A stretch of 64,000 nt of DNA from an uncultured Acidobacteriota bacterium. GTDB taxonomy: Bacteria > Acidobacteriota > UBA6911 > RPQK01 > JAPXNP01. Location: the NCBI GenBank assembly GCA_963777605.1, contig CAVZRV010000013.1, positions 64,001 to 128,000 on the forward strand, given 5' to 3'. Under the pieces are notes generated by a model, which searched no databases, was not told where the DNA came from, and was given only the letters and a program-made list of their open reading frames with translations. Positions 2-27,177 of the stretch are shown here, piece by piece (position 1 is the first letter of the stretch; the number at the start of each line of letters is the position of its first letter). Made by a program: the position numbers and the translations under genes.

Positions 2-1285
2 GATGGAGACCTTCAGGGCTACCCGTTGAACCCGACCCAGTTCGAGATCGCTCCGGACGCCCAGTACGCGGCCCTGGGTCGGGAGATGTTCGACATTCCT
101 GCCGGAGAGAGCCATTCGGGTTGGGCCAGGCTGGTTTCGACCGATCCGGAGATCGGCAGCTTCTTCCAGTTCGGAAACGGGCTGGTTGGCCCGCTGACGA
201 AGATGGATGGGTCCACGGCCTGGACGACGCAATCCCAGAAGCTCTACTTCACCCGGATCTACCAGGGACAGGCGGTGTATCCCTCCTACAGCGGGCTCAA
301 GGATGCGACGACCTGGCTCTCGATCGTGAACCCGAACGAGCAGGACATCACCGTAACGATGCAGCTGTTCAGCCCCCAGGGTGCCCAGATTGGGACCAAC
401 GTGGTCCGGCCCATTGCAGCCCAGGGGCGGATTTTCGACACGGTCGCATCGATCTTCAACCGGGATGGCGATCCGTTCTATGACGGGTACGTCAAGGTGG
501 TGGTGGATGGCCCCGGCGCAATTGGGTTCGAGATGATCGAACTCGCCGACAGCCTGTTTGGACTGAACGCCGCAACCGATACCGCGGCCCAGGTTCTCTA
601 TTCGGCCCAGTTGGGACACGGATCCACAATTTATACGAGTCTGAAGCTCGTCAATCCAACCAGTACGGTGGCTACCGTCACCGTGAGAGCTTTCATTCGT
701 GAGGCCGGGGGGACGATTGGTGAGCGAGTGTTTGGCCCGTTTCAGCTCGGGCCAAATCAGGCCCTCCAGCAGACGGCCGCAGCCATGTTTGGCCTTGGGC
801 CTGGCGGCACGGACCTGGTGGAAGGATCGATGCGCGTGAACGTGGAGGGGGCGGGAGCTTTCGTCGTCGGTGACGTCGTTTTCGGCGATCCGCAGTCGGC
901 CCGCTTTGCGGCGGCCCTTCCACTGCAGTCGCGTCTTTTCCGGAAGGCCGTGCAGGGACAAATTTCCAACGGCCGAGTGCCCGGTAATCCGTCACTCGAT
1001 TCCTTTACCGGGCTGGCGCTCTTCAACCCGAACACCACTTCGGCGCACGTGACCGTGGAGGTTTTTGACAAGGACGGCAACAGCGTCGGCAGCAAGGAGC
1101 TCACGTTGAAGGCCAACGAACGGATCTCCAAGCTTCTCTACGAGACGGATTTCGTTCCGGAGAGCCTCGGGCTGATTCGAGGATATGTCGTCCTCACGGC
1201 CGATCAGCCGATCGTGGCCCAGCAACTCTTCGGGAATCTGGCTCTGGACTACCTCTCCGCCGTGGTCCCGACCATTGTGGAGTAG
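2..1285 (+). CDS. C-terminal part of a large secreted protein with repeated beta-sandwich modules (Acidobacteria-type, unknown function); truncated by the window start
   Basis: Frame is open from position 2. Three similar modules (TWLSIVNP, TSLKLVNP, TGLALFNP), each followed by GY/GS-x-x-V and an 'IG/VG/VA' strand. Confidence 0.7.
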   Translation, partial: DGDLQGYPLNPTQFEIAPDAQYAALGREMFDIPAGESHSGWARLVSTDPEIGSFFQFGNGLVGPLTKMDGSTAWTTQSQKLYFTRIYQGQAVYPSYSGLKDATTWLSIVNPNEQDITVTMQLFSPQGAQIGTNVVRPIAAQGRIFDTVASIFNRDGDPFYDGYVKVVVDGPGAIGFEMIELADSLFGLNAATDTAAQVLYSAQLGHGSTIYTSLKLVNPTSTVATVTVRAFIREAGGTIGERVFGPFQLGPNQALQQTAAAMFGLGPGGTDLVEGSMRVNVEGAGAFVVGDVVFGDPQSARFAAALPLQSRLFRKAVQGQISNGRVPGNPSLDSFTGLALFNPNTTSAHVTVEVFDKDGNSVGSKELTLKANERISKLLYETDFVPESLGLIRGYVVLTADQPIVAQQLFGNLALDYLSAVVPTIVE

Positions 1286-10392: not shown

Positions 10393-11610
10393 ATGGACGT
10401 GACGTTGGAGTGCGCTGATTTTCTGAGGCGCCTGATCCGGACCCCAGGCCTGCCCGGGGAAGAGGGCAATGTGGCAGAAGTGGTCGCCGGAGAGATGACG
10501 CGGCTGGGTTTTGACACCGTGGACCGGGACGGCGCGGGGAACATCATCGGGTTGGTGCGGGGAAACGGCCCGTCAGAGCCGATCATGCTCAATACCCACC
10601 TGGACCACGTTGCGGCTGGCGAGGAGAGCGAGTGGCCCTATCCCCCATTCGAGGGATCGGTGTCGGATGGCCGGATTTGGGGCCGGGGAGCTGTTGACAT
10701 CAAGGGACCACTCGCGGCGCAGGTTTACGCCGTGGGTGAACTGGCGCGGGCGGGCCGGAGGCCTCCCGGAGACGTGTGGGTCACCACGGTCGTGATGGAG
10801 GAAATTGGGGGTTTGGGTGCGCGCTACCTGGCTCGAAACCTGTTCACCAAATGTGTAATTGTCGGAGAGCCGAGCCGGAATCGGCTGATGCGAGGACACC
10901 GGGGCCGGACCGAGTTGCTTCTGACCGTCACGGGAAGGAGCGTTCACGCGAGCATTCCCGATCACGGAGTGAATCCGCTTGAAGTGACCGCGTCCTTCAT
11001 CTCGGCGATACCGGGACTCCCGCACCTGGTCGATGCCGAACTCGGACCGAGCAGTGTGGCCCCGACACTTTTCCGGACCGACCAGTCGAGCCCAAATGTC
11101 ATTCCCGGGCGAGCCTGGCTGACCTGCGACTGGCGCAATGTCCCAGGAGAGACCGGGGAGAGTATTCGCAAGTTGCTTCAGGAACTCGCCAACCGCTGTC
11201 TGATCGAGGGCGCGCGTGCCGAAGTCACCATTCCAGGCAGTGAGTTGACAACCTACACCGGATACCGGGAGTTCTCCCATTCCTACCACCCGTCATTTTG
11301 TCTCGGTCCGGAGGATCCCTCCTTGAAGGCGGCTGAAGCGGTTGTTGCTCGTGTTTTGGAAAGGCCGGCGAAAGCCGGAGTCTGGAAGTTTGCCACTGAC
11401 GGTGGCCACTTCGCGGAAGCTGGCATGAAAGTTCTGGGCCTGGGTCCGGGTGAGGAAACCCTGGCGCACACTGTGCGGGAGTCGATCGGCCTGGACGAGC
11501 TCGAAGAAGGCCGCCGATTGTACCAGGCCCTGGTCTGCGACGAGGCGTTTCGGCGCACGCAAGCCGGGGGTATCGGAACGCGGAACGGCCGAGACACGGC
11601 CGCGGGGTAA
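10393..11610 (+). CDS. M20 family metallopeptidase/deacylase (ArgE/DapE/YgeY-like)
   Basis: NTHLDHV, GRGAVDIKG, MEE, VGEPS, ATDG, AHT. Confidence 0.88.
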   Translation: MDVTLECADFLRRLIRTPGLPGEEGNVAEVVAGEMTRLGFDTVDRDGAGNIIGLVRGNGPSEPIMLNTHLDHVAAGEESEWPYPPFEGSVSDGRIWGRGAVDIKGPLAAQVYAVGELARAGRRPPGDVWVTTVVMEEIGGLGARYLARNLFTKCVIVGEPSRNRLMRGHRGRTELLLTVTGRSVHASIPDHGVNPLEVTASFISAIPGLPHLVDAELGPSSVAPTLFRTDQSSPNVIPGRAWLTCDWRNVPGETGESIRKLLQELANRCLIEGARAEVTIPGSELTTYTGYREFSHSYHPSFCLGPEDPSLKAAEAVVARVLERPAKAGVWKFATDGGHFAEAGMKVLGLGPGEETLAHTVRESIGLDELEEGRRLYQALVCDEAFRRTQAGGIGTRNGRDTAAG

Positions 11611-11634
11611 GGAACGCGCCCCCGGGTGCCTGCC

Positions 11635-11696
11635 CTCCCGGCTGTCGGTTGCGCGGACGCAGGCCCGGTGAGGGCCTGGCCGACAGAGCCGGGGAG
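11635..11696. terminator. Long GC-rich hairpin between convergent genes (possible bidirectional terminator or REP)
   Basis: CTCCCGGCTGTCGG ... CCGACAGAGCCGGGGAG with inner CAGGCCC-GGTGA-GGGCCTG stem; no clear U-tract. Confidence 0.4.
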
Positions 11697-11766
11697 AAGC
11701 GGTTCCCCCAACCGAGATCCCTCGACAAATCAAGAATAAGAAATCGTAGATCGTACGTGTCCCACG

Positions 11767-13020
11767 TCACGGCTTCCAGGGGCTGATTTGCCCGCTTTCC
11801 ATCTCCACCATGGTTACCGGGCGCGTGTTTTGACCGGTCAGGTCCCAGACGATCGGTCCGGCCGCCCCGGACCAAGAGAATTTGGCCCGCAGCGTGTCTC
11901 CAATCCGGGCCCGGTTGGCACCGGCTTCTCGCACGGCTTCTCCCAGGAGTTCGATGGCGTCGTAGGTCTGGGCGGCAGCGAAGTCCGCGGGGTGTCCGGT
12001 TTCTGACCGGAAACGCTTCGAAAACTCTTCCAGGGCTCCAAGGTCGGCCGGGAGGGGGAATATGAAGCGGTTGGACAGCCCCGCCGCCGCTTCGTGGAAG
12101 GATCGGCGGCCCATCGCCGAAGAGCCGTAAACAGGTCCGGAATAGATCGGCGCCAGGTGGCGCGCAACCTGCGCCGAAACCTGCGGATCCGCCAGGATCA
12201 CCAGGGTGGGCCGGACCGAGCCGGCGAGGAGTTGACGATTGAGGTTGGAGAGTTCGGTCTCGTCGCCTGTGGTGACGTTCAGGTGGTAGTGAAGCGCGCT
12301 CTCCCGCTTCGAGAGCGCTTCGAGGAATTCAGTCGTCACGGCGCGGGAGTCATGGTCGGTGGCGGAGATCAGGACGATGGTGTCGGTATGGCCGTTCTTC
12401 TCCAGCGTTTCGAGGAGCAACTCCATCTGGAGGTCATCGCCCGGCAGGCAGGAAAAGATCCACGGAACGTGGGCCATGTTGGCCGACCGGTCGGTCGATC
12501 CCGGGTTGAGCAGGGGCAGGCGGGCTTTGGCGACGATCTGCTCGGCCAGGTGCGCGGTAGGCCCGTCTACGCCGCCGATGATGGCCTGGATTCCGTCGTT
12601 GTAAACCATCCGCGCGATCTGCCCGACACCGCTGCCCCAGGGATTCTCCGACCACGCGGGAAGGAGTCGGAAGGGCAGCCCCCGGTAGCCGCCTCGAGCG
12701 TTGAGGTCGTCGATGGCCATTTGGGCAGCGGTCCAGGAATCACCATACAGTGGGTGATCGGGATCGGACGGCCCGAAGTAACCGATGCGGATCTCCGTAA
12801 GGCCCGGCGGGTCGATGTCATCCCGCCCGGGGCCATTGTAGTGGTGCAGGCTTGTTCGGCCGTCGAAGAACGGGCCCTCGGCCTGTCCAGCCAGAGCCGG
12901 TCGAATCAGGCAGCACAGCCCGGCCAAAACAACCAGGGCTCGGCAAATCTGGAGCCGGCTCGCCTGCCAATCGGACGGAGGGTTCGATTGGCGAACCCTC
13001 CGGCACCGGTCAGCGGTCAA
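11767..13020 (-). CDS. Periplasmic binding protein, type 1 (LivJ/LIVBP-like), last gene of the HZS-like operon
   Basis: Signal-peptide-like stretch, IRIGYFGP, AIDDLNARGG, AIIGG, AAQTYDA, GAAGPIVWD. Start codon uncertain. Confidence 0.85.
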   Translation of the reverse strand: MTADRCRRVRQSNPPSDWQASRLQICRALVVLAGLCCLIRPALAGQAEGPFFDGRTSLHHYNGPGRDDIDPPGLTEIRIGYFGPSDPDHPLYGDSWTAAQMAIDDLNARGGYRGLPFRLLPAWSENPWGSGVGQIARMVYNDGIQAIIGGVDGPTAHLAEQIVAKARLPLLNPGSTDRSANMAHVPWIFSCLPGDDLQMELLLETLEKNGHTDTIVLISATDHDSRAVTTEFLEALSKRESALHYHLNVTTGDETELSNLNRQLLAGSVRPTLVILADPQVSAQVARHLAPIYSGPVYGSSAMGRRSFHEAAAGLSNRFIFPLPADLGALEEFSKRFRSETGHPADFAAAQTYDAIELLGEAVREAGANRARIGDTLRAKFSWSGAAGPIVWDLTGQNTRPVTMVEMESGQISPWKP

Positions 13021-13032
13021 TGGCAGGCCGCT

Positions 13033-14497
13033 TCACGGCTGACCCGGTCCCGTTCCGGGACGATATCCTTGGGGGATATCGAGGTCTTCCCGCGTGTAGT
13101 AGTGCCAGGCGCCGTCCTTGAAGTGCGCCATGGCGACCGTCCCGACGTCATCCAGTGCCGCACTGAGGGCGATCTGCCCCGTCACGCCCGGCCATGGCTT
13201 GGACCTGTAGGCCAGCACGTCACGAACTTTGGCCCGATTCAATCCCGCCACCTGGACGGCCCAGATCAGCATATTCATTCCGTCGTAGGCGTGAGCCGCG
13301 TAAGTGTCCGCCTCGACACCGAAGCGTCTCCGGAAGATCTCCCGAAAAGCGGACAGCTTGGGATCTTTCCGGTCCGGGTTCCAGGGGTACATTGCCCAGA
13401 CTCCCTCGGCGTTCTGGCCGGCTATCTCGGTGAAAGTCGGGCGAGACGTGCCGGTCGGAGCCGAAGAACGGTTGCTTCATCCCCATCTTCCGCATCTGGT
13501 TGAGAATCATGGCCCCTTCCTGGGCATCTCCCCAGTGGACGATGGCGTCCGGATTGGTCGCCTTGAGGCGTTCCAGTTGAAGCGAGAAATCGGTGTCCCC
13601 GAGACGGTAGGCCATCTCCAGAACGACCGGCTTCTCCAGGCGCCGGCTGCCGTCCCGAACCTCGCGCACACCGAAGCGGCCGTACCGGTTGGAAGCCCGG
13701 ATGATCCCCACCCGTTGGTAGCCCATTTTTCGGTACAGGTAGTCCACCAAAAGGTAACCCATCTGCCGGTCGTCCCCGATACAGCGGAACACCCACGGGA
13801 TGTTCGTCTCGATAAAGGTCGGGTCGGTGTCGCCGGAGTTCATCATGGCAACCTCGGCCTTCAGAGCGACCCGGATCGCGATGTGGCTGTTGGCGCCGTC
13901 AATCGTGCCGAGAATCGCCCAAACCTTGTCGTTGTAAGCCATTTTGATGATCTCGTTGCCCGAGGCTCCCCACAGCCCGTTGTCGTTGGAGACGGCCAGT
14001 TCGAATGGAACCGACCGTTTCAGGTAGCCTCCCCGGGCATTGGCCTGTTCGATGGCCAGTCGGCTGCCCCGCATCATCTGGATTCCCAGGGGCTCTTCGT
14101 GGCTCTTGCCGCCGGTAGCGACCGAAACGGTGGACATTATGGGACCGATGAATCCGATCTTGACCGAATCGACATGCTCGGGTTCGGGGATCGCGCGCCC
14201 GGGTCCGGTGTACTCGATCTGAAGGAGGAAGTTCTCCTTGAAGGGTTTGACCCCGCTGAACGGTTCGACGTCGACGGCGGTTCCGGCGTAGTTCTCGTCC
14301 CGCTTCAGGTCAATTGGAGGAGTTTCATAGGCAGTGATGTTGTTGAGGATTTCCAGGACCTTGGCCACGGCCGGATCATCCACCGCGAAAGGAGGCAGGA
14401 GTTCATCCGGGGGCAGAATGTCCGGTCGTTTTGTCGCCTGGGCAAAGAGCCCGGACACGGTCAGGATGACGAAGAATACTCTGCAGACCAGTTTCAT
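13033..14497 (-). CDS. Periplasmic binding protein, type 1 (LivJ/LIVBP-like), +1 frameshift at ~13432
   Basis: Signal peptide, VKIGFIGP, AIEQANARGG, DTDFSLQL; C-terminus (AAHAYDG, GVTGQI) is in ORF 13033-13392. Confidence 0.85.
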
Positions 14498-14503
14498 GGC
14501 TAG

Positions 14504-15754
14504 TTACCTCCTCGCACTCGCCGGCCGGGCAGGAGATGTCGCTGCGGTCGGGGTCGTGGCGGCTGCGTCGGAGCCCTCCGGTTTGAGCCCGGCAAAGTAG
14601 TTCGTTCCGATCCCGTGGGCCAGGCCTTTCGACGTTCCGATCCAGACATCAGAACCGTCGAAATCTACTGCAAGCGTGTAGTTGTGGGGAATTCCGGTGG
14701 CGGTCTCAACCTCCTTCAGTACCTGTTTGTTGCGGGATACGATCGCCTTTCCCTTGTGGGTTTCCGGGTCCATCGTATAGGTGACCCACGTATCGGTATC
14801 AAAGTCGGTCACGGTCCCCACGCCCTTGTCGGTACAGAACCAGGCCTCCTGGGCGCTCCGCCCTTTGACGGCATTGATGAAGTCACTGGGAAGCCCGGTT
14901 TCCTGGTTGTAATAACCGCGCCAGTGTCGTCCGTCGTAGCGGCATCCCCCGAAGTAGGTCGAAACCCAGAGGATCTTGTCCACGTAGCTGACTCCGGTCG
15001 TGATGACGTGGACAATCCCGTCATCGCGATAGAGGTCGATCTCCATCTCACCGTCCGGGTCGAGGTAGTCTTTCCAGGTCCCGCGCGCGATGTCGTATTC
15101 GAGTACACCGCTTCCCCAGACACCGAGGTAGACAAGGCCGTCGTTGTAGGTGACACCGTAGTTCCAGATCTCCTCCATGGGCGCATTCTTCTCTGTAAAA
15201 ATGGCCCATTCGCCGGTAACGGTGTTGAATCGGCTCGCACCCGCGGTAGTCGCACACCAGACATTGTCGTGCTCGACGGCGACCCCGTAGACGACGTCGT
15301 TGACCAGTCCGCTGTTCAACTGGTGCCAGTGATCGAACCGGCCGGCGGTATAGCGCGCCAGGCCGCCGCCGAACAGGGCCAGCCAGACCTCCCCGGTCTT
15401 TGGGTTGACGGCGATCCAGGAGACCACCTTCCAGGGGAGACCATCCTCCATCGTCCAGGTCCGCTTGACCTTGCCGGCGACCTTGTCGATGAGGGCCAGG
15501 CCGTTCTCCGTGCCGACCCAAACGTCGTTGCCGTTGACGGTGACGGCGAAAATGTGGTCGTTTGGCAGCCCATCCTTGACCGTGAACTGCTGCCAGTCCC
15601 GGTAGATGTACGGCAGCGGTTCCTGCTCAGCCGCGGGCGGAACCAGCGCGGATTCAGCGAACGGCAGGGCCGGGATCGTAAACAGTATCGCCAGGACTGT
15701 CAGCAGAAAACGCGGGCATTCCTTGATGCTGACTGGGAATGATTGTCTGCTCAT
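14504..15754 (-). CDS. Secreted beta-propeller protein (two-component regulator propeller / ligand-binding sensor repeats) with no kinase domain
   Basis: Repeats DGLPNDHI..VWVGTENGL, DGLPWKVV..VWL, SGLVNDVV..VWCAT, TGLPSDFI..AWFCT, GIPHNYT..VWIGTSKGL. Confidence 0.85.
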   Translation of the reverse strand: MSRQSFPVSIKECPRFLLTVLAILFTIPALPFAESALVPPAAEQEPLPYIYRDWQQFTVKDGLPNDHIFAVTVNGNDVWVGTENGLALIDKVAGKVKRTWTMEDGLPWKVVSWIAVNPKTGEVWLALFGGGLARYTAGRFDHWHQLNSGLVNDVVYGVAVEHDNVWCATTAGASRFNTVTGEWAIFTEKNAPMEEIWNYGVTYNDGLVYLGVWGSGVLEYDIARGTWKDYLDPDGEMEIDLYRDDGIVHVITTGVSYVDKILWVSTYFGGCRYDGRHWRGYYNQETGLPSDFINAVKGRSAQEAWFCTDKGVGTVTDFDTDTWVTYTMDPETHKGKAIVSRNKQVLKEVETATGIPHNYTLAVDFDGSDVWIGTSKGLAHGIGTNYFAGLKPEGSDAAATTPTAATSPARPASARR

Positions 15755-15782
15755 AATTGAGTCCTCACCGATTCTTCTCGGA

Positions 15783-18635
15783 TCAGAACGTCTTGATGTA
15801 CTCAATCAGATCGTTCAGTTGATCCTTGGTCAGATCGTTCGTCACCCCATGCTTATCCTGGGGGTTGTGCACGGTCCAGATCTCCTCCAGCGTGGGTGCG
15901 ATCCCGTTGTGAAGGTAAGGCGCTGAGTCATAGATGTTGTTCAGATGGGGAACGTCAAAGAGCGCTTCCCGATCATAGGGCATCCGGGTTCCGACATCCA
16001 CCTGGGTTCGGTTCGTGTAGAGCGGAGGTGGATGACAGAAGACACACTGTCCGGTCTTGGGAATTTCCCGGCCGTCGCTGGTCATCGATCGCTCGAAGAC
16101 GGACTTGCCTCGTCGCTGGGCGGGAGTGAGTTCGGCTCCCAGAGGACGATAGCGGTTTGGTGGCCGCTGAATCATGGAAATGTAGAGATCCAATGCGGCC
16201 AGTTCGTCCGGGCTAAAAGGCTGGATTCGGGTGAAGAAGACAGCCAGGCGGGGACCGCATTGCCGCTGCAGGCTTGGGTTGGTACCTTCCCACTTGAACG
16301 GGGCGGTGTCCAGAATCCCGCGAAGCGTCCGGTTGTCCACGGGGCTCACGCCCACTCCATCCGGTTCGATGTCGTAAGTGACTCCGTCAACGTGGCCGTC
16401 CGGGTGGCAGGAGTGGCAGGAGAATTGGCGTCGGAAGGTGATTTTGGCATTGTGAAAGAGCTGTTCTCCCAAGCGTGCCTTGGTGATCTGCCTGGGTCCG
16501 CCAAGGTCCACGACTCCAGCTGGCTCGAGTCGCTTCATGTCGATAACCGTGAGGGAATCGTCCAGGCAATTGGCGACGAAAGCAGTGCTGCCGTCCGGCG
16601 TCACCCGAATTCCCCGCGGGCTCTTCCCGGTCGGGATCAGCTTCGCAATGAACTCGGTGGGCAGGCCCAGGTGATTGGGCAGAACGTTCTTGCGCTCTTC
16701 ATCGGATGCCGACTTGAGGATGCCGACCAGTTTGTTGAGATCGACCACCGCCACCCGGTCGAGGCTCGCGCTGGTCACCAGGGCATACTTTCCGTCCGGC
16801 GTGATCGTCAGGCCGGTGGGGTCGGGAAACGAGATGTCGGTCTGGTCGAGCAAGACCTGGTCCACGTGCCCGTCCTTCCAGGCGATCCCGATGCCGTTGG
16901 TGATGGTCCAGCCCTGGGTCAGCCTGGTCATGGGCACCAGGTTCTTGGTTCGGAGCATTACGAAGACGGCGTATTCCCCGCTCGGATGCCAGTCTACGCC
17001 GAGCAGGAGGTTCGTTCCCCGGGCGGTGTAGCGGTCGTCCACCTTCTCGGTCTTGGTATTGACCACGGTCAGTTCCGAGACACAGGGAGTCCGGAAGGGG
17101 ATAAACCGGGACAGGGCATTGGTCACGACGATCTGGCTGCCGTCGGGAGACAGGGACATCGCCCAGGGATACCGGCTTGCCGTCAGCCGGGACTTCTCGG
17201 TCAGTGAATCGCCATCCAGGATCGAGATGCTGTCCTCAGAGGAGTTGAGAACGTAAACGTCCCGGCCCATGCCGTCCATCTGGACGCCGTGTGGTTCGTC
17301 GCCGACGGGTACGGTGCGCAACACCTTCCGCGTCACCACATCGATCTCGCTCAAGCTGTCGTCGAGCCGGTTGGTGACGAGGACCCTCTTCCCGTCTGGG
17401 CTGAACGTCAGGTCATTGGGCTGGCCTCCGACCTGAATCTCGGCCACCTTCTGGCGCCTGGCGACATCCACAACGATGACCGAATCAGAGGTTTCGCAGG
17501 TGAGCCAGACTTCACGGCCGTTTGGAGAGACAACCAGGTTAAGAGGGTTCTTGTAGCGGATTTGCGCCACCGGTGCAGGGCGCTTTTTCGGGTGGGCGAT
17601 CGATTTCCACGCTGCTTCGTAGTCGAAGGATTTTCCGTGGGCATCGGCATGGCACTCCATGCACATGTCGCGATTGCCCAGTTTGAGGCCAGCCTCGCGG
17701 GCCGCCTCCTTGTCCAGCATGATGGCTTCGTGCTGGTAGTCGCTGCCGGGTCCATGGCACGACTCGCAGCCGACTCCCTCATCCAGGGTAAGCGACGGGA
17801 GAGCCTCGGACAGTTTTCCTCCGGTGGTGGCATGGCAGCGCAGGCACTTGGGGCTCTGTTGGGCTGGACCTTCGATCCCGGCCTGGCGAGCAATACCCTG
17901 GGCCGCCTCAGTGGCGAGGCGCCCATAGGCCTTGGCGTGCGGAGACATCTTCCAAATGCTGAATTGGTAACCCATCATGGCCGCGCGGTGGCACTGGGTG
18001 CAGGCCTGCACGCCGACGTAGTGAGGACCAGGGGTCGTTTCGTCCGCCGTCCCGGACAGGGCGGGCAGTTCCGTGAGTTCCGCCGAGTCCGGCGTCGGGT
18101 GAGCAATCCTGTTCCAGCCCTCGTCGATGTCCAGCTTGGGCAGGTTGTGGACTGCGACGTGCGATCCCTTCTCGTTGTGGCACATCTTGCAGTCGTTCTT
18201 GGTGATCTTCTTCAGCCCGGCCCGCATCGCGGCTGCGGGATCGCTCATGACCTCGGCGTCCATGTACTCGCTTCCGGGACCGTGACACTTTTCGCACTGG
18301 ACCCCGTCCTCGATGCGGAACCCGTCGTCATGTTCCCAGTCTTCGGCTTCCGCCCCGGTGGCATGGCATCCGAGACACACCGGTGACTCCTGCGGAACCT
18401 GGGGCACTCCGCTGAGGCGGGCAATTTCCAGGGCCTCCGACTTGGCCAGGACCGCGTAGGCCCGGCTGTGCTTGGTCATCAGCCACTTGCTGAACTGGTG
18501 GCCCATGGAAGGCCCGTCATGGCAGGTAGCGCAGGCCCGTGCCCCGACGTAGATGGGCTGGCGTTGCTGAGCCGCAGCGGAAACCAGAAGGCAGCTCATG
18601 CTCAGCAGGAATGGCAGCAGGGATTTGGAACGCAT
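15783..18635 (-). CDS. Decaheme fusion: tandem cytochrome c554-like domains + YVTN beta-propeller (hydrazine synthase beta-like) + diheme cytochrome c peroxidase-fold domain (hydrazine synthase gamma-like)
   Basis: Signal peptide MRSKSLLPF. Ten CxxCH: CATCH, CLGCH, CEKCH, CKMCH, CTQCH, CLRCH, CESCH, CMECH, CHSCH, CVFCH. Propeller repeats (VGGQP..FSPDGK). CCP-type motifs TAPFKWEG and VPHLNNIYDSAPYLHNG. Confidence 0.9.
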   Translation of the reverse strand: MRSKSLLPFLLSMSCLLVSAAAQQRQPIYVGARACATCHDGPSMGHQFSKWLMTKHSRAYAVLAKSEALEIARLSGVPQVPQESPVCLGCHATGAEAEDWEHDDGFRIEDGVQCEKCHGPGSEYMDAEVMSDPAAAMRAGLKKITKNDCKMCHNEKGSHVAVHNLPKLDIDEGWNRIAHPTPDSAELTELPALSGTADETTPGPHYVGVQACTQCHRAAMMGYQFSIWKMSPHAKAYGRLATEAAQGIARQAGIEGPAQQSPKCLRCHATTGGKLSEALPSLTLDEGVGCESCHGPGSDYQHEAIMLDKEAAREAGLKLGNRDMCMECHADAHGKSFDYEAAWKSIAHPKKRPAPVAQIRYKNPLNLVVSPNGREVWLTCETSDSVIVVDVARRQKVAEIQVGGQPNDLTFSPDGKRVLVTNRLDDSLSEIDVVTRKVLRTVPVGDEPHGVQMDGMGRDVYVLNSSEDSISILDGDSLTEKSRLTASRYPWAMSLSPDGSQIVVTNALSRFIPFRTPCVSELTVVNTKTEKVDDRYTARGTNLLLGVDWHPSGEYAVFVMLRTKNLVPMTRLTQGWTITNGIGIAWKDGHVDQVLLDQTDISFPDPTGLTITPDGKYALVTSASLDRVAVVDLNKLVGILKSASDEERKNVLPNHLGLPTEFIAKLIPTGKSPRGIRVTPDGSTAFVANCLDDSLTVIDMKRLEPAGVVDLGGPRQITKARLGEQLFHNAKITFRRQFSCHSCHPDGHVDGVTYDIEPDGVGVSPVDNRTLRGILDTAPFKWEGTNPSLQRQCGPRLAVFFTRIQPFSPDELAALDLYISMIQRPPNRYRPLGAELTPAQRRGKSVFERSMTSDGREIPKTGQCVFCHPPPLYTNRTQVDVGTRMPYDREALFDVPHLNNIYDSAPYLHNGIAPTLEEIWTVHNPQDKHGVTNDLTKDQLNDLIEYIKTF

Positions 18636-18651
18636 CAAGTCTGCTCTCCCT

Positions 18652-20289
18652 TCAGTTGGCGCCTTGAATGATTTTGAGAACCTGGTTGGCCGGGACATTC
18701 TCGAGTTTCTGGGTCTCTCCTCCCGGCCATCGAATCTCAATTGAGTCCACCTTCTGCGCTTTTCCCAGTCCGAAGTGGAGCCGGGAATCGACCTCTGAGA
18801 GGTATCCCCGGACGGGTTGAACGTTTTCGATTTGTCGCAGCGAATCAACCTGGACGGTGACCCGCGCGCCCAGAGCATCCCGCTCGGGGCCGGGGAGCTT
18901 CGGGACGACCTTAATCCAGTTGTTCTCGTTGCCACCGTCGTTGCGCAGCAACTTGGCGCGATCGTTCAGGTTGACGATCACCAAGTCGAGATCCCCGTCG
19001 TTGTCAAAATCGCCGAAGGTGGATCCCCGTCCAACCATTTTTACCCTGAAATAGTCTCCGGAGCGGTCGGAAACATCGTTGAAAACACCGGTGCCGTCGT
19101 TGTGAAGCAGCACATCCTCCTCGGTGTACTCGTGGTGAGCGTTGCCGTTGGAGACAAAGAGGTCGAGGTAGCCGTCATTGTCGTAGTCCACCAGGAGACC
19201 GCCCCAGCCGGTGTACTGACCGCAGGTGATGGCGACCTTGGAGCGGGTGGTCTGGTCTTCGAAGAACTCTCCCTGGTTCATTAGGAGACTGCTGTAGCCC
19301 ATGTCGGGGACGTAGATGTCCAGCAGTTGATTGCGGTCGATATCGCCCGGAAAGGGGCCCATCGAGGAAACGCCCTGTCCATGTTCGCCGAACGCCAAAC
19401 CCAGGAAGAGTCCCTTTTCGACGAAGGTCCCCTTTCCGGTGTTCTCGAAGTAGTAGTTTTCGGTGGCATCGTTGGCGACGTAGATGTCCATGTAGCCATC
19501 GCCGTTGAGATCGGCGGCGGTGGCACTCATGGCACGCCCGTTGTCCTTGAATACGCCTGCCTCACGGGCGACGTTAGTGAACGTGCCGTCGCCGTTGTTC
19601 CGATAGAGCGCATCGCTCTCGGCGCTGTAGCTCAGGGGGCCAGGGTAGCCGGCCGCGGCGTAGTAGGCCCGGAACTTTCCGTCATCGTAACGCAGGTAGT
19701 TGGCCACGTAGACGTCGAGGTCACCGTCATTGTCGTAATCGAGCCAGGGAGCGGAAAGGCTCCAGTTGGGGTCGGCCAGGCCCGCCTCTTTCGCAACGTC
19801 GGTAAACGTGCCGTCGCCGTTGTTCCGGTAGAGGACGTTCGAGCCGTAGTTCAAAACGTAGATGTCCACGTCCCCGTCGGCGTCGAAATCGACGGCGGAG
19901 CAGCCGAAGCTGGGACTTGGATCGCCAACCCCTGCCGAGTCGGTGACATCGGTGAAGGTGCCGTCCCCGTTGTTTCGGTAGAGATGGTTGAAGAGCTTTC
20001 CGCGCAGCTTCCGGCCACGGTTGTCGCTGATGGATTTGTCCCAGGAACCGTTCGGGAAGTAGAGGTCGAACCAGCCGTCGTTGTTGTAGTCGAGGAAGCA
20101 TGCCCCGGCACCGGTCCCCTCAACGATGTTGGTCAGGTCGAAATCGCCGAAGCTGTGTTTGAAGTCAATTCCCGCAGAGTCGGTGACGTCCACAAAAACC
20201 GGCAGGTTCGCCGGGTTCTGGGCCTGTCCCAGCGATCCGGCAATCGCCAGCGCGAACAAGAATAGGCATGGTCGGCGAAAGCACCTCAT
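18652..20289 (-). CDS. CRTAC1 family protein (FG-GAP/VCBS repeats + ASPIC/UnbV C-terminal domain)
   Basis: Multiple DxDxDGxxD Ca-binding repeats with LYRNNGDGTFTDV; C-terminal ALGARVTV..GYLS..RLHFGLG..IEIRWPGG. Confidence 0.92.
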   Translation of the reverse strand: MRCFRRPCLFLFALAIAGSLGQAQNPANLPVFVDVTDSAGIDFKHSFGDFDLTNIVEGTGAGACFLDYNNDGWFDLYFPNGSWDKSISDNRGRKLRGKLFNHLYRNNGDGTFTDVTDSAGVGDPSPSFGCSAVDFDADGDVDIYVLNYGSNVLYRNNGDGTFTDVAKEAGLADPNWSLSAPWLDYDNDGDLDVYVANYLRYDDGKFRAYYAAAGYPGPLSYSAESDALYRNNGDGTFTNVAREAGVFKDNGRAMSATAADLNGDGYMDIYVANDATENYYFENTGKGTFVEKGLFLGLAFGEHGQGVSSMGPFPGDIDRNQLLDIYVPDMGYSSLLMNQGEFFEDQTTRSKVAITCGQYTGWGGLLVDYDNDGYLDLFVSNGNAHHEYTEEDVLLHNDGTGVFNDVSDRSGDYFRVKMVGRGSTFGDFDNDGDLDLVIVNLNDRAKLLRNDGGNENNWIKVVPKLPGPERDALGARVTVQVDSLRQIENVQPVRGYLSEVDSRLHFGLGKAQKVDSIEIRWPGGETQKLENVPANQVLKIIQGAN

Positions 20290-22205
20290 TCATCCCCTCC
20301 TGAAAGTCTCTTCTGCTCCATCTCAACTGCGTTCTGCACCCGGGATCCGCCATGAGCACCCAGATCGATCCACTCAATCATCACCTGGGCGTGTGCCGGT
20401 TGCACCAGCGGTTTCCCCATATTGGGCGGGCCCTCGTTCTGATTCGGCACTGTCCCGTCCCAGGGAAGAGTAGTGATTTTGCCCAGGATGTGCCAGACCA
20501 GGGGACTGGTTCGGGCCCGGCCCGGGTCGATCCAGCGTTTTTCCCCGCCTTCCGAACCCGGGTTTCCGCCATTCAATCGCGCGTAAATTCTTGCGACATA
20601 CCCACTGGAATCCGTCCGGCCGTCGGGAGGACGGAAGTCCGCCCCCGAAGTTCCCCCGGAATGGCATGACTCGGTCGTGCATCCCTTCTGGATAACCGGA
20701 AGGACATCCCGCTGGAAATCGACATAGCGGCGCAGGTGGGCGGGCGCGGTCAGCCGGACGGGAGGCTTCTTCACCGCATCGACAAACCGGTTGTCCGGGA
20801 CCAGTTCTCCGTCTTCGTGGCAGCCGATGCATCCACGAGGTTCCTTGTTCCTGGCCCAGATCCAGCCGCAACTCTTGAGGGACATCCCCTTGTCGTCAAT
20901 GAGTTGCAGCTGGACCGGCGTGTTGGCCGGCACCTCGAAGAAGACGGAGCCGTCGGCTTCCAGGGGAACCTCACCGAGGATACGTTTGGGAATCATCGAA
21001 TCCCTGGATTCGGAATGAGCCGGCAGGCCCTCGAGGACGCGCACGCGCCTGGCGAGGGACTGCAGTTGTGTCCCATTCTTCAGATCGTTGATGCCGACGT
21101 TGAGGCAGTAGAACTGCCCGAAGGGATGGTTCTCGTTGACCACGCTGGAGCGGCCGTCGGGTTGGGGGCGAGCTTTGACTAGGCGCCCGTAAAGCAGGTT
21201 GCTGGATGAACTGGACAGCCAGGGCGTGAAGGTCCCGCTTTCCGGGTCCAGTTTCACGACTTCGAAACGTGAAGAGCCGGCCGAGGCTTTCCGGGAAACC
21301 AGGATCGAACCGTCCGGAAGCGGGGCGGGGGAGTAGAAAATCCCCTCTGCCGGCCCGGTGAGTCTTCGATAGGTGTGCATCGGGCGCCGAAGCGAGACCG
21401 AGCCCAGGGTTCCCCCGATGGCCCCCGCGTCGAGAGCCGATTCGACGAACACGGCCAGGTCATGGGTCGTCACCGTGGGCATTTGCTGGACCGGCGATCC
21501 CTGCAAGCCGGAAAAGGCGACCAGGTCGGTGCCGTCAACGTTCATGTTGAAGATCCGGGTCTGGCCGGCATCGCTTGCAGCAGTCCCGGCCCGCCGGCTC
21601 GAGAAGAGGATGCGACCGTCCCAACAAAGGAAGGGATCTTCGTCGGAGGACGGGTTATAGGTGATCCGCTTGATCTCGCTCCCGTCGAGTTGGCAGGAAT
21701 AAAGGTTGAGGGCTTTGCCGGTGCCCCGCTCGTTGTACTCACCTGCCGCGTCACTGACAAAGAGGATCTGAAGCCACGGCTCGTTCGCCGTGATGATGTA
21801 GTAGGCTGACAGGTAGATCGGAGAGCGACAGTTTCCGGAGTCGCGGGTGACCTGCCGGGTCTTTCCCGAATCAATCTCGTACTCGAAAATGTTCCAGGGT
21901 TCGCCGGCTGAGGGCCTTCCGGAAAAAAGGATCCGCTTCCCGTCGTAGGAGACGTCAGGTTCGCAGGCGCTCTCGAAACCCTTGCTGACGGCAACCGTTC
22001 GGCCGTCCGGATAGCGCAGTACTAAGCGGGCCCCGTCACAGACCTCGGAACGCTGAACTTTTGCCGGGGAGACGGAAGGCGGAAGCGCTCGTGCTTCCAC
22101 CAGGACGGTTGGTTCGGGGGGGGCGGGGGATTGCGCCCAGACCAACCCCGACACTCCGAAAACGATGAGAGAGAAAGAGAGGAGACCTCGCATTTCACGA
22201 GTCAT
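20286..22205 (-). CDS. Hydrazine synthase alpha subunit-like protein (TolB-like propeller + HZS-alpha middle domain + c-type heme domain)
   Basis: PDVSYDGKRILFS propeller; RILGEVPLEADGSVFFEVPANTPVQLQLID middle-domain signature; CIGCH; VDFQRDVLPVIQKG-CTTESCH. Its stop overlaps the next start (ATGA). Confidence 0.85.
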   Translation of the reverse strand: MTREMRGLLSFSLIVFGVSGLVWAQSPAPPEPTVLVEARALPPSVSPAKVQRSEVCDGARLVLRYPDGRTVAVSKGFESACEPDVSYDGKRILFSGRPSAGEPWNIFEYEIDSGKTRQVTRDSGNCRSPIYLSAYYIITANEPWLQILFVSDAAGEYNERGTGKALNLYSCQLDGSEIKRITYNPSSDEDPFLCWDGRILFSSRRAGTAASDAGQTRIFNMNVDGTDLVAFSGLQGSPVQQMPTVTTHDLAVFVESALDAGAIGGTLGSVSLRRPMHTYRRLTGPAEGIFYSPAPLPDGSILVSRKASAGSSRFEVVKLDPESGTFTPWLSSSSSNLLYGRLVKARPQPDGRSSVVNENHPFGQFYCLNVGINDLKNGTQLQSLARRVRVLEGLPAHSESRDSMIPKRILGEVPLEADGSVFFEVPANTPVQLQLIDDKGMSLKSCGWIWARNKEPRGCIGCHEDGELVPDNRFVDAVKKPPVRLTAPAHLRRYVDFQRDVLPVIQKGCTTESCHSGGTSGADFRPPDGRTDSSGYVARIYARLNGGNPGSEGGEKRWIDPGRARTSPLVWHILGKITTLPWDGTVPNQNEGPPNMGKPLVQPAHAQVMIEWIDLGAHGGSRVQNAVEMEQKRLSGGDE

Positions 22206-22311
22206 ACAACAAATCCTGAATAGACTCGACCCGCCGCGTGCTCGTTGGCCATGAGAGTGAGGCACTCGGGCCGAATGACAGTGTCTCGGTCTCGGAATCG
22301 CAGAAGACGAA

Positions 22312-22899
22312 CTACTCTTCCCGCTTCAGCATCGCAATGGCCTCGATCTCGACAAGCAGATCCTCACGGCAAAGCCTGGCCTGGATTCCGACACTCGCCG
22401 GCAGAGGGCTCAGTTCGAGGTAATTGAAGAAGGCGTTTCGGACCCGGTTGAATTCTTCGTAATCGCGCTCGATATCACGCAGATAGCAGGTGCATTTCAC
22501 GATATCGCGCCAGGTTGCCCCCTGGGCGGTGAGCAGTTCGGTGATATTCCGGTAGGTACGCCAGCACTGGGCGCGAAAATTGCCTTTGTGGACCGTGTCT
22601 CCTTTTTCGTCGACACTGGCGGTTCCCGAAATGAAAATCAGGTCGTGGTTGCCCATCTCGATGCGAAGGCCGCGCGAGAAGGCCGAACCGTAGTCATACG
22701 CTTCGTTCAGGACGGTGGAGGCGGAGACCGCCTGCCGTGTGACGGACGTGAACCCCGGTTGGTGTGCGACCTCGAGCAACGGTCGAACTGAGCCAGAAGA
22801 AGAGAGCAGGCCGAGAGCGACCAATTCCTGTCTTTCACCTTTAGTCAGGTTGCCAAATCCCGCCAGAATGTCGTCGCGCACGCTCACCAATGTGCTCAT
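22312..22899 (-). CDS. Rid (YjgF/YER057c/UK114) family protein, FkbO/Hyg5 chorismatase-like subtype
   Basis: SAFSRG, IFISGTAS, LCREDLLVEIEA; first gene of the operon, no signal peptide. Confidence 0.8.
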   Translation of the reverse strand: MSTLVSVRDDILAGFGNLTKGERQELVALGLLSSSGSVRPLLEVAHQPGFTSVTRQAVSASTVLNEAYDYGSAFSRGLRIEMGNHDLIFISGTASVDEKGDTVHKGNFRAQCWRTYRNITELLTAQGATWRDIVKCTCYLRDIERDYEEFNRVRNAFFNYLELSPLPASVGIQARLCREDLLVEIEAIAMLKREE

Positions 22900-23384
22900 T
22901 TACCGGTCCCTCCCAATCAGCATGTTTAAGAAGTACAGAATTCACCCACGGCTTCAGAACAGCAAGATCAGTGCCAGCATTCCAACTTTCTGAACGGAGC
23001 CCTCTAAGCCCTGAAAAAGAAATAGTTTATATAAAAAGTACGGTTTGCCGGGCCGCGCCTCGTGGAAAGCCTGTTCATAGATTCTATGGGCACCGGGATA
23101 CAAGCCGGCACCCTGGACCGGTCGGGCCCGCGGCAACAGGGAGCCGACTAACTTGTGGCGAATGAGTAGATTAGCCTTGAAGCCCTGAAGAAGGGCGGCT
23201 CCCGCATATACATGAGATGTAATTCGTACAATATGTGTTAACTCAAGATCTACATCGCGCGTTGGGGATTTGGTTTTCGGTCGCCGGCCCGAACCATCGG
23301 TGTTATGATGCTCTCCTGCCGCCCGGCGGGACCATTTTGACTTGAGCCCGACCACGTCCTTTCATATGATCTAACCTGCGGATC

Positions 23385-23400
23385 TTTGATTACTTTCAAA
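23385..23400. promoter_or_regulatory. Putative CRP/FNR-family binding site
   Basis: TTTGATtactTTCAAA matches TTGAT-N4-ATCAA at 9/10. A -10-like TATACG is at 23421-23426, followed by an AGGAGG RBS and ATG at 23449. Confidence 0.45.
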
Positions 23401-23448
23401 CGGTCTTTGGGAATCTACCGTATACGGAAAAAGACTAGGAGGATTTGA

Positions 23449-24078
23449 ATGCCCAAAGAGAAGAAGCCTGAGATGAGCAGCTCCGGCCTGTCCCGAAGAG
23501 ACTTCTTCAGAAGCGGCACCGTGGCCGGCATGTCGGCGGCACTGGTTTCGCAGAAGTCAGGGCTGGCCAAGAGTGAGGCGGGAACCCAGATTCTGGGCCC
23601 GGACCCGGTGCCAATCAGACTGATCGTCAATGGAAAGCAGCTCAATCTCAAGGTCGAGCCGCGGGTCACCCTGCTGGACGCATTGCGCAACGACCTGGGA
23701 ATAACCGGTGCAAAGAAGGTTTGTGACCGTGGAACGTGTGGTGCGTGCACGGTACTTCTTGACGGAAAGCCGGTTTACTCCTGCTCGGTGTTCGCGATCG
23801 AAGCGCAGGGAAAAGACATCGTCACCGTTGAGGGCCTCGGCACTCCCGACAAGATGCACCCGATACAGGAGGCGTTCGTGGATCACGACGCCCAGCAGTG
23901 CGGGTTCTGTACTTCGGGATTCGTGGTTGCCAGCAAGGCATTTCTGGACAAGAACCCGAATCCGAGCCTGGAGGATATCAACAAGGGTTTGGGCGGTAAC
24001 CTGTGCCGTTGCGGAACCTACGCCGGAATCCGCGGTGCAATCCTGCAGGCGGCTGGGAAAGGAGGAGACAATGCCTGA
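23449..24078 (+). CDS. Xanthine dehydrogenase/aldehyde oxidoreductase family 2Fe-2S subunit with Tat signal (PaoA/YagT-like)
   Basis: SRRDFF twin-arginine motif; GAKKVCDRGTCGACTV; QCGFC; NLCRCG. Confidence 0.93.
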   Translation: MPKEKKPEMSSSGLSRRDFFRSGTVAGMSAALVSQKSGLAKSEAGTQILGPDPVPIRLIVNGKQLNLKVEPRVTLLDALRNDLGITGAKKVCDRGTCGACTVLLDGKPVYSCSVFAIEAQGKDIVTVEGLGTPDKMHPIQEAFVDHDAQQCGFCTSGFVVASKAFLDKNPNPSLEDINKGLGGNLCRCGTYAGIRGAILQAAGKGGDNA

Positions 24079-26197: not shown

Positions 26198-27177
26198 TGA
26201 ACAAGTTCGAATATGCGAGTCCAAACACAGTCGAAAGCGCCATTCAGCTCCTCGGACCGGAAGCGGCCGTTCTGGCCGGCGGCAGTGACCTGCTGAGCCT
26301 GATGAAGGACGGGGGTGCCGCTCCCAAGCGGCTCGTCAGCATCAAGGCCATTCCGGACCTCTGCGGGATCACCGACCTCGGCAACAAGGGAATCCGCATC
26401 GGAGCCCTGGTGACGATTGACGAGTTCGTGGAACATCCCCTGATCCAGGCCAATTATCCGGCCCTGATTCAGGCCGCCGACGGTATCCGGAGCCACCAGA
26501 TTCAAAGCCTGGGAACCGTCGTGGGTGACCTCTGCCAGCGTCCCCGTTGCTGGTATTTCAGGACCGGCTTCGGTCTTCTCGCCATGAAAGACGGCAAGTC
26601 AATGGTCCTGGACGGCGATAACCGGTATCACGCGATTCTCGGGAATTCCGGGCCGGCCTACTTTGTTAGTCCTTCAACCATCGGCCCTGGGCTGATCGCT
26701 TTGGGGGCGCAGGTCGCCATTCAGGGACCCAAGGGAAGCCGGCAGACTCCGGTCGCCGATTTCTTCCGGATCCCGACTGCAGAAGGGGAGTTGGAACACG
26801 ACCTGGCTCCCGACGAAATCGTAACCGAGATCGTGATTCCTCCGGCTGCCGGCAAAAAGTCGGCAACCTATGAAGTCCGCCAGAAGGAAGCCCTGGACTG
26901 GCCGCTGACGGCCGCCGCAGTTGCTCTCGAAATGGACGGAGACACGGTCAAGGCAGCCAAAGTGGTCCTCGGACACGTGGCGCCCAAGCCCTGGGTAGCG
27001 GACGCTGCAGCTGCGGCCCTCGTTGGCAAATCGGTCAGCGAGGCGACTGCGGCCGCTGCGGGAAAGGCCGCTGTTCAGGGAGCCAAGGCACTGAGCAAGA
27101 ATGGCTACAAGATCAATCTTACTCAGGTGACCGTCAAGCGCGCTGTGCTTCGAGCGGCCGGCAAGGAGGTAGCCTAA
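26197..27177 (+). CDS. Xanthine dehydrogenase family FAD-binding subunit (PaoB/YagS-like)
   Basis: LAGGSDL; IRIGALVT; CQRPRCWYFR; LGHVAPKPW; NGYK. Confidence 0.92.
   Translation: MNKFEYASPNTVESAIQLLGPEAAVLAGGSDLLSLMKDGGAAPKRLVSIKAIPDLCGITDLGNKGIRIGALVTIDEFVEHPLIQANYPALIQAADGIRSHQIQSLGTVVGDLCQRPRCWYFRTGFGLLAMKDGKSMVLDGDNRYHAILGNSGPAYFVSPSTIGPGLIALGAQVAIQGPKGSRQTPVADFFRIPTAEGELEHDLAPDEIVTEIVIPPAAGKKSATYEVRQKEALDWPLTAAAVALEMDGDTVKAAKVVLGHVAPKPWVADAAAAALVGKSVSEATAAAAGKAAVQGAKALSKNGYKINLTQVTVKRAVLRAAGKEVA

Follow-up and report, generated by a model that had tools for sequence, protein, structure and literature searches.

A decahaem clade I homologue of the hydrazine synthase beta and gamma subunits in an uncultured Acidobacteriota bacterium

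An exported decahaem fusion protein and its gene cassette

The stretch of 64,000 nucleotides analysed here (hereafter the window; contig CAVZRV010000013.1 of assembly GCA_963777605.1, positions 64,001 to 128,000) belongs to an uncultured Acidobacteriota bacterium and encodes, on its minus strand, an exported protein of 950 amino acids (P0001; 15783..18635) in which regions resembling HzsB and HzsC, hydrazine synthase (HZS) subunits beta and gamma, are fused to each other and to an N-terminal multihaem cytochrome region. The longest reading of this open reading frame (ORF) starts with GTG and runs from 18935 down to 15783, but we prefer the start at 18635 (MRSKS) because homologues measure ~950 amino acids and the resulting N-terminus resembles a Sec signal peptide. 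The fusion contains ten CxxCH motifs, eight within its first 330 residues and two within its last 210. The first eight belong to two cytochrome c554-like tetrahaem modules (residues ~34-350; 17586..18536), recognized in two stretches by Pfam PF13435 (Cytochrome_C554; 108 bits against a cut-off of 20.8) and, for residues 206-349, by similarity to PDB 1bvb_A (E=1e-8). They share the tetrahaem fold of cytochrome c554 of Nitrosomonas europaea (1BVB, 1FT5), which occurs here twice as a fused module whereas it is a free carrier in that organism; the NCBIfam Cyt554 equivalog model (Nitrosomonas) gives 56.7 against a cut-off of 400, and the kinship is one of fold, not of orthology. A seven-bladed YVTN propeller of HzsB type follows (residues ~361-700; 16536..17555), with a long loop, RTKNLVPMTRLTQGWTITN (residues 562-580; 16896..16952), and a two-helix insertion in blade 6, LNKLVGILKSASDEERKNVLPNHLGL (residues 633-658; 16662..16739). 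The C-terminal part is an HzsC-like dihaem domain of the type found in cytochrome c peroxidases (CCPs) and MauG (residues 701-950; 15786..16535) and contains the haem motifs CHSCH (residues 740-744; 16404..16418) and CVFCH (16032..16046), as well as an additional Cys in QRQCGPRL (residues 790-797; 16245..16268). Besides Cytochrome_C554, Pfam recognizes a YVTN/YncE-type propeller, a weak CCP_MauG domain (26.6 against 25.6 bits), and a RoxA-like_Cyt-c match. The strings for the loop, the insertion, and the Cys that a first-pass annotation had singled out all lie on the minus strand within this one ORF.

The fusion gene is part of a collinear cassette of six genes, in the order HzsA-like, CRTAC1/FG-GAP propeller, fusion, Reg_prop propeller, and two periplasmic binding proteins (PBP1 and PBP2). 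Signal-peptide-like N-termini, read by eye, are present on all six products. A scan of positions 11000-23600 for promoters and terminators gave nothing exceeding shuffled controls, and a search for sequencing runs listed no RNA run and a single soil-metagenome DNA run (word share 0.12).

Similarity to hydrazine synthase in sequence and fold

Both the propeller and the dihaem domain find their closest PDB sequences in the HZS of ‘Ca. Kuenenia stuttgartiensis’ (5C2V). The fusion protein matches HzsB (5c2v_B) with E=3e-37 and HzsC (5c2v_C) with E=8.1e-19 (phmmer), and a profile of 36 family members reaches 1.1e-52 and 7.2e-28, respectively, whereas ordinary CCPs in the same searches remain at 1e-5 or worse. 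Although identity to the Kuenenia subunits is only ~24-25%, this likeness far exceeds chance. An AlphaFold2 (AF2) model built on a diverse 76-row alignment had a predicted local distance difference test (pLDDT) score of 94.5 and a predicted TM score (pTM) of 0.93; an earlier run on a shallow alignment (36 sequences, 60-77% identity) had left the dihaem domain at pLDDT 30-40. The best Foldseek match of the model is 5c2v_B (E=3.5e-31, target TM 0.91), which is also the closest structure according to VIA (Z=46.8, root-mean-square deviation 1.8 Å over 340 residues), the next propeller reaching Z=37.8 over 283 residues. The additional residues aligned to 5c2v_B would fit a common loop and a common two-helix insertion, the helices of the latter being predicted at model residues 279-288 and 291-300. 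With the whole model, both fold searches returned propeller matches only, which filled their lists.

The NCBIfam models for HZS are likewise the best matches of the system and yet reach no more than 13-28% of their cut-offs, none of which is attained (hydrazine_BC, 202 of 1250 bits; beta, 158 of 560; gamma, 80 of 625; alpha, 149 of 800). Because these cut-offs are missed and the system differs at six residues associated with the function of HZS (see below), it is not a hydrazine synthase. It shares with the Kuenenia enzyme the propeller with its 245-260-type loop and helical insertion and, judged by sequence, the dihaem gamma fold with a CxxCH His ligand and an extra Cys, but it differs by the fusion of beta and gamma, the added N-terminal eight-haem region, a reversed gene order, and four more conserved exported partners.

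Residues at the haem and tunnel sites

Residue names of HZS follow the main text of Hagglund et al. 2025 (Genome Biol Evol, PMC12758564) and the text of a preprint (bioRxiv 10.1101/2023.01.22.525020). For gamma, adding 39 to the chain index of 5c2v_C reproduces Cys102, Cys105, and His106 of the former source; for beta, an offset of 34 from the chain index of 5c2v_B follows from the VIA range 41..386 and the chain length of 352 residues. On this scale, CHSCH falls on gamma-Cys102, Cys105, and His106 and would bind the gamma-I-like haem, and CVFCH would serve the gamma-II-like electron-transfer haem. Cys793 (16257..16259) aligns with gamma-Cys165, the residue that makes a third haem thioether in HZS. 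Arg796 (16248..16250) aligns with gamma-Asp168, which is distal and lies 4.08 Å from the haem gamma-I iron in HZS, as given in the preprint (bioRxiv 10.1101/2023.01.22.525020), and Trp782 (16290..16292) aligns with gamma-His144, where CCP and MauG enzymes have Trp. Not all acids are lost, and the haem-propionate partners are kept: in the alignment, an invariant Asp759 stands for gamma-Glu122 and Lys781 for gamma-Arg143, both propionate partners in HZS according to the same preprint.

In the propeller, residues 563-578 align with the beta 245-260 tunnel loop and Arg571 (16923..16925) with beta-Glu253, a Mg ligand in HZS. We take beta-Glu253 to be the glutamate of this loop, following the first-pass annotation. 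Since Thr573 occupies the place of the second HzsB loop Glu, the loop retains no acid whichever of the two is meant. The main text of PMC12758564 speaks of ‘a conserved glutamic acid’ in the 245-260 loop and does not name its number.

These assignments were followed in two alignments. The first comprises the fusion and the 105 sequences of 900-1000 amino acids found among 120 matches listed; as these homologues are 66-92% identical to the fusion, its counts are not independent. Cys793, Arg796, Arg571, and Trp782 are each present in 106/106 sequences, and the loop RTKNLVPMTRLTQGWTITN is nearly invariant. The second, wider alignment (n=61) contains the query, one paralogue, and 59 representatives of 575-690 amino acids with 24-44% identity. 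Here Trp is found at position 782 in 50/61 sequences, Cys at 793 in 24/61, and Arg three residues on in 26/61, 20 of the 24 sequences with the Cys having both; position 571 is Gln in 43/61 and Arg in 2/61. The C-x-x-R pairing, mostly in the form QCGxR, can be traced to relatives of ~32% identity. By this distribution, the pair of Cys and Arg is older than the clade to which the fusion belongs (clade I, see below), and Arg571 is specific to that clade.

The first-pass annotation had matched the long loop, the helical insertion, and the extra Cys to HzsB and HzsC, had supposed that the nearby catalytic acids were replaced, and had concluded that the scaffold was that of HZS and the reaction another. 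Alignment to the Kuenenia subunits bears this out, with Cys, Arg, and Arg at the positions of gamma-Cys165, gamma-Asp168, and beta-Glu253 and with the insertion agreeing in both the PDB and the profile alignments. The shared scaffold agrees with the VIA superposition as well, and a different reaction is well supported by the replacement of both acids by Arg and of gamma-His144 by Trp, by the NCBIfam scores, and by the changes in the alpha-like subunit described next.

The HzsA-like partner

Two genes upstream of the fusion lies a gene for an HzsA-like protein of 635 amino acids (20286..22193, minus strand; start MRGLL). Like Kuenenia HzsA, it possesses a propeller, an HZS_alpha middle domain (Pfam PF18582, E=5e-21), here with the motif CIGCH, and a second haem site, here CTTESCH; 5c2v_A is its sole PDB sequence match (E=1.8e-34). 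The alpha-I site of HZS is characterized by alpha-Tyr591 as proximal haem ligand and by Zn on His587 and Cys303. In the HzsA-like protein, CIGCH occupies the alpha-I position, but no Tyr is present in the next 15 residues, alpha-Cys303 falls within a five-residue deletion, and alpha-His772 aligns with Met, so that the Tyr/Zn site of HZS is missing. The second haem motif, CTTESCH (residues 505-511; 20679-20699, minus strand), has the unusual spacing C-x4-CH, which it shares with ten other rows of a 40-row alpha alignment (loci L003, L004, L067, L017, L041, L007, L034, L016, L075, and L073); it is CxxCH in the remaining 29.

Relation to described homologues

Gene clusters of this type have been described by Hagglund et al. 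(PMC12758564) as ‘clade I’ homologues of the HZS complex. The main text of that study reports for clade I the c554 domains, the retention of the Cys, the loss of the loop Glu, the presence of the Trp, and the absence of the alpha-site features (those of the alpha-Tyr591/Zn site being missing from clades I-III), and it concludes that clade I proteins cannot make hydrazine. Cultured carriers that it names include Paludibaculum fermentans, Thermogutta terrifontis, Opitutus terrae, and Syntrophobacter fumaroxidans. Our cluster agrees with this account in its alpha-like gene upstream, the FG-GAP/CRTAC1 gene in between, the fused beta-gamma gene, and the two binding-protein genes downstream, as well as in the eight extra N-terminal CxxCH motifs that make up two c554 domains. 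It agrees also in the Cys at gamma-165, the Trp at gamma-144, the lack of a conserved loop Glu, the kept blade-6 insertion, and the lack of the features of alpha-Tyr591, Cys303, and His772. By comparison with the gene order given there, the Reg_prop gene stands here between the fusion and the binding proteins; the C-x4-CH form of the second alpha haem motif and a frameshifted PBP1 are local details. The gene is therefore a further member of clade I with nothing of substance different, and its kind is known but uncharacterised.

What we add concerns, first, the identity of the replacing residues: by our alignments, gamma-Asp168 and beta-Glu253 are both exchanged for invariant Arg, which reverses the charge in the tunnel loop and at the distal haem position. 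The main text of PMC12758564 contains none of the words arginine, aspartate, and aspartic, although its supplements (alignments and taxon tables) may list Arg changes. Second, the Reg_prop gene is a constant member of the cassette, a RidA-like gene is a frequent neighbour, and the same genome contains a second cluster; the main text of PMC12758564 mentions neither the Reg_prop gene nor the RidA-like neighbour.

A wider HZS-like family acting on other substrates was proposed by Dalcin Martins et al. 2023 (FEMS Microbiol Lett, PMC10732223), whose text describes metagenome-assembled genomes (MAGs) of Phycisphaerae UBA1845 in which, as here, a non-Brocadiales alpha-like gene adjoins a fused hzsBC-like gene. 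Compared by description only, these MAGs differ in that the alpha-like gene is immediately upstream of hzsBC, and anammox potential was considered for them.

Proposed system and alternative explanations

We think it probable that the protein is a clade I HZS homologue's fused beta-gamma subunit and that it acts in an HZS-like complex whose chemistry is other than hydrazine synthesis. As a ten-haem periplasmic protein, it would combine an eight-haem c554-like wire with a propeller like that of HzsB and a dihaem domain like that of HzsC, and homology and gene order make it most likely that this protein and the HzsA-like one, which has two haems, assemble into a twelve-haem complex resembling HZS. 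Electrons may travel through the c554 modules, reach the gamma-II-like haem, and from there cross Trp782 to the gamma-I-like catalytic haem, which would be held by CHSCH plus a putative third thioether from Cys793. The alpha-like subunit would contribute an ordinary His-ligated haem site in place of the Tyr/Zn site, and the other cassette products, namely the two binding proteins together with the propellers of CRTAC1 and Reg_prop type, presumably belong to this periplasmic system as well. The exchange of both acids for Arg suggests that the small substrate or intermediate is anionic or differs in some other way; our guess is that the reaction could be the multi-electron conversion of an N-oxyanion or of a related oxyanion or peroxide.

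Several points weigh against parts of this proposal. The direction of electron flow may be reductive or oxidative, and the third thioether from Cys793 is deduced from alignment and conservation. The idea of an anionic substrate is drawn from two residue changes, one of which, at position 571, is limited to clade I, most of the wider relatives having Gln there. The LIVBP-type binding proteins and the RidA-like and asparaginase-like neighbours (25 and 6, respectively, of the 80 related loci described in the next section) hint at organic or amino nitrogen, which does not fit a simple oxyanion reductase. In addition, the frameshift in PBP1 may mean that the cassette is damaged in this genome, unless it is an assembly indel, and the main texts of the two studies on the family (PMC12758564, PMC10732223) assign no function to its members.

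We give little credence to a bolder proposal: that the cassette is a widespread and hitherto undiscovered periplasmic nitrogen enzyme system in which the two-site, tunnel-linked design of HZS has been reused for a different coupling, often beside a RidA-type imine deaminase. For example, the gamma-I-like haem, lined by Arg and triply bound, might reduce an N-oxyanion to a product that then reacts, at the alpha-like haem, with an amino compound brought in by the binding proteins. If true, the hydrazine synthase design would have found a second use in nature, in soil Acidobacteriota and Planctomycetota.

Among the explanations that depart from an HZS-like complex with other chemistry, the one that survives best, though still unlikely, is a peroxidase or a MauG-like oxidant-using enzyme, in which the gamma-like domain would either remove H2O2 using electrons supplied by the c554 wire, as bacterial dihaem CCPs do, or, in the manner of MauG, oxidize a partner protein (for example the alpha-like, CRTAC1, or Reg_prop protein) at one of its residues or at a cofactor. 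Haem enzymes that cleave peroxide usually have a distal Arg. The fusion resembles the bacterial dihaem CCPs and MauG in possessing a two-haem domain in which two CxxCH motifs occur and a Trp stands between the haems; the CCP_MauG gathering score of Pfam is just passed, RoxA-like_Cyt-c is matched, and weak matches include CCPs, MauG, MbnH, and 6e1c, a dihaem enzyme. Moreover, Trp782 takes the position of the catalytic Trp of CCP and MauG instead of gamma-His144, in all 106 family sequences, in keeping with the main text of PMC12758564. By contrast, HzsC is much closer to the domain than any CCP or MauG (E=7e-28 against ~1e-5), and the third Cys, the fused propeller and octahaem wire, and the HzsA-like partner set the protein apart. 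A plain peroxidase could do without an HzsA-like partner, a tunnel loop, an eight-haem wire, and binding proteins, all of which are strictly conserved. Judged from these sequence comparisons, CCP/MauG membership is a kinship at the level of the domain only.

Distinctly less probable is that Cys793 has a function as a free thiol close to the haem (as an axial ligand, or as an Arg-flanked Cys that is redox-active or carries a persulfide) in an enzyme acting on sulfur oxyanions such as thiosulfate, for which the His/Cys-ligated dihaem enzymes TsdA and SoxA provide the comparison. An invariant Cys with an invariant Arg three residues on (QCGPR) would be compatible with such a thiol, and the double change from acid to Arg would suit oxyanions. 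Yet the Cys aligns exactly, with conserved flanks, with the crosslinking gamma-Cys165, TsdA and SoxA are not among the PDB sequence matches, and no sulfur-oxidation genes were seen in the cassette loci; furthermore, in HZS it is the +3 residue and not the Cys that lies over the iron, as the preprint text describes (bioRxiv 10.1101/2023.01.22.525020). Finally, a true divergent HZS in a cryptic anammox-type bacterium has almost no chance of being correct: although all three HZS subunits are the best or only PDB sequence matches and gamma-Cys165 is kept, gamma-Asp168, beta-Glu253, gamma-His144, alpha-Tyr591, alpha-Cys303, and alpha-His772 are all changed, the scores fall far under the NCBIfam equivalog cut-offs, the family is spread across Acidobacteriota and non-anammox Planctomycetota, and, for this family, such an interpretation is rejected in the main text of PMC12758564.

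To our knowledge, HZS was long believed to be without relatives; the clade I family, which is common, shows where its scaffold originated. For an HZS-like complex with other chemistry, the residue map offers experimental handles in the kept extra Cys and the two acids replaced by invariant Arg, and it argues against counting such genes as anammox markers in metagenomes. A conserved periplasmic system of six proteins and, as predicted, twelve haems also bears on the redox biology of soils and sediments.

Conservation of the cassette, neighbouring genes, and distribution

From 254 relatives recovered by scanning GTDB species genomes, we kept the best 80 loci and searched their neighbours with tblastn. 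Order and orientation of the cassette are the same in nearly all of these loci, many of the missing genes falling at contig ends. The exported Reg_prop-type propeller gene directly after the fusion (14504..15754, minus strand; Pfam PF07494) is the most constant neighbour, present in 78/80 loci with 58-81% identity. The exported FG-GAP/ASPIC-UnbV propeller gene of CRTAC1 type, located between the alpha-like and beta-gamma-like genes (18652..20289, minus strand), is found in 73/80, the alpha-like gene in 66, PBP1 (13033..14497, minus strand) in 69, and PBP2 (11767..13020, minus strand) in 57-66, the raw count of 66 for the latter including nine low-identity cross-matches onto PBP1. A predicted complex of the beta-gamma part with the Reg_prop protein scored 0.00 against a mark of 0.32, a value obtained without controls that speaks neither for nor against binding. 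Both binding proteins are of LIVBP type, and no ABC permease or ATPase genes recur beside them in the cassette loci. PBP1 extends over two reading frames, residues 73-408 of its L003 orthologue matching one and residues 387-514 the other; the change of frame, between 13376 and 13440, is either a real frameshift or an assembly indel error. An orthologue of the fusion in a related genome (G015:C75:2928-5780) has one in-frame TAA within the match.

A RidA-family (Ribonuc_L-PSP) gene is encoded directly upstream of the cassette (22312..22899, minus strand; Pfam PF01042, E=6e-21). Its product has the Arg of the ARL motif and no signal peptide. Such a gene adjoins the cassette in 25/80 loci including the window, where it is the immediate neighbour either of the alpha-like gene on the upstream side or of PBP2 on the downstream side; because its side varies, a functional tie is suggested, and the gene may belong with the cassette. 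In 6/80 loci (representative L068, 5482-6831), an ORF judged by eye to be asparaginase-like lies ~250 bases upstream of the alpha-like gene. In the window, a three-gene set for a molybdenum hydroxylase of the xanthine-dehydrogenase/CO-dehydrogenase family (2Fe-2S, MoCo, and FAD subunits) is located divergently upstream (23449-27177, plus strand) and is common only to the closest Acidobacteriota loci (L003-L005 and L007).

The family comprises at least 3578 members in the protein database. According to the genome records, its hosts are mostly Acidobacteriota and Planctomycetota (Pirellulales, Phycisphaerae, and Sedimentisphaerales), and identity across phyla is unusually high (60-77%). The closest loci are from Acidobacteriota MAGs, in which the whole protein is 72-73% identical and its beta-gamma part 76-77%; they have flanking genes in common with the window, which by itself would make that phylum the probable source of its genome. 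Among 40 related genomes, the gene occurs in 12/15 of the same family as against 4/25 from other families of the order. An apparent spread to Campylobacterota was set aside: the two ‘Arcobacter’ records (L063 and L074) are probably mis-binned, since their contigs have 65-67% G+C and the same layout as Acidobacteriota/Bryobacteraceae loci (L068 and L081). In the genome of the window (96.7% complete), copper nitrite reductase was not found and NrfA gave weak matches only.

The same genome has a second, shorter HZS-like cluster on another contig (C30:24000-40000; locus L091). It begins with a cytochrome, truncated by the end of the locus, in which at least ten CxxCH motifs occur, a HAMP/HisKA_3 sensor kinase containing two such motifs, and a response-regulator-like ORF (by eye), and continues with an FG-GAP/ASPIC protein, a one-haem alpha-like protein (406 amino acids), a beta-gamma-like protein, a Reg_prop protein, and one binding protein. 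The beta-gamma-like protein is without c554 modules, has 39% identity, and keeps both Cys and Arg in the form QCGIR; the layout of this cluster matches ‘clade III’ as described in the main text of PMC12758564.

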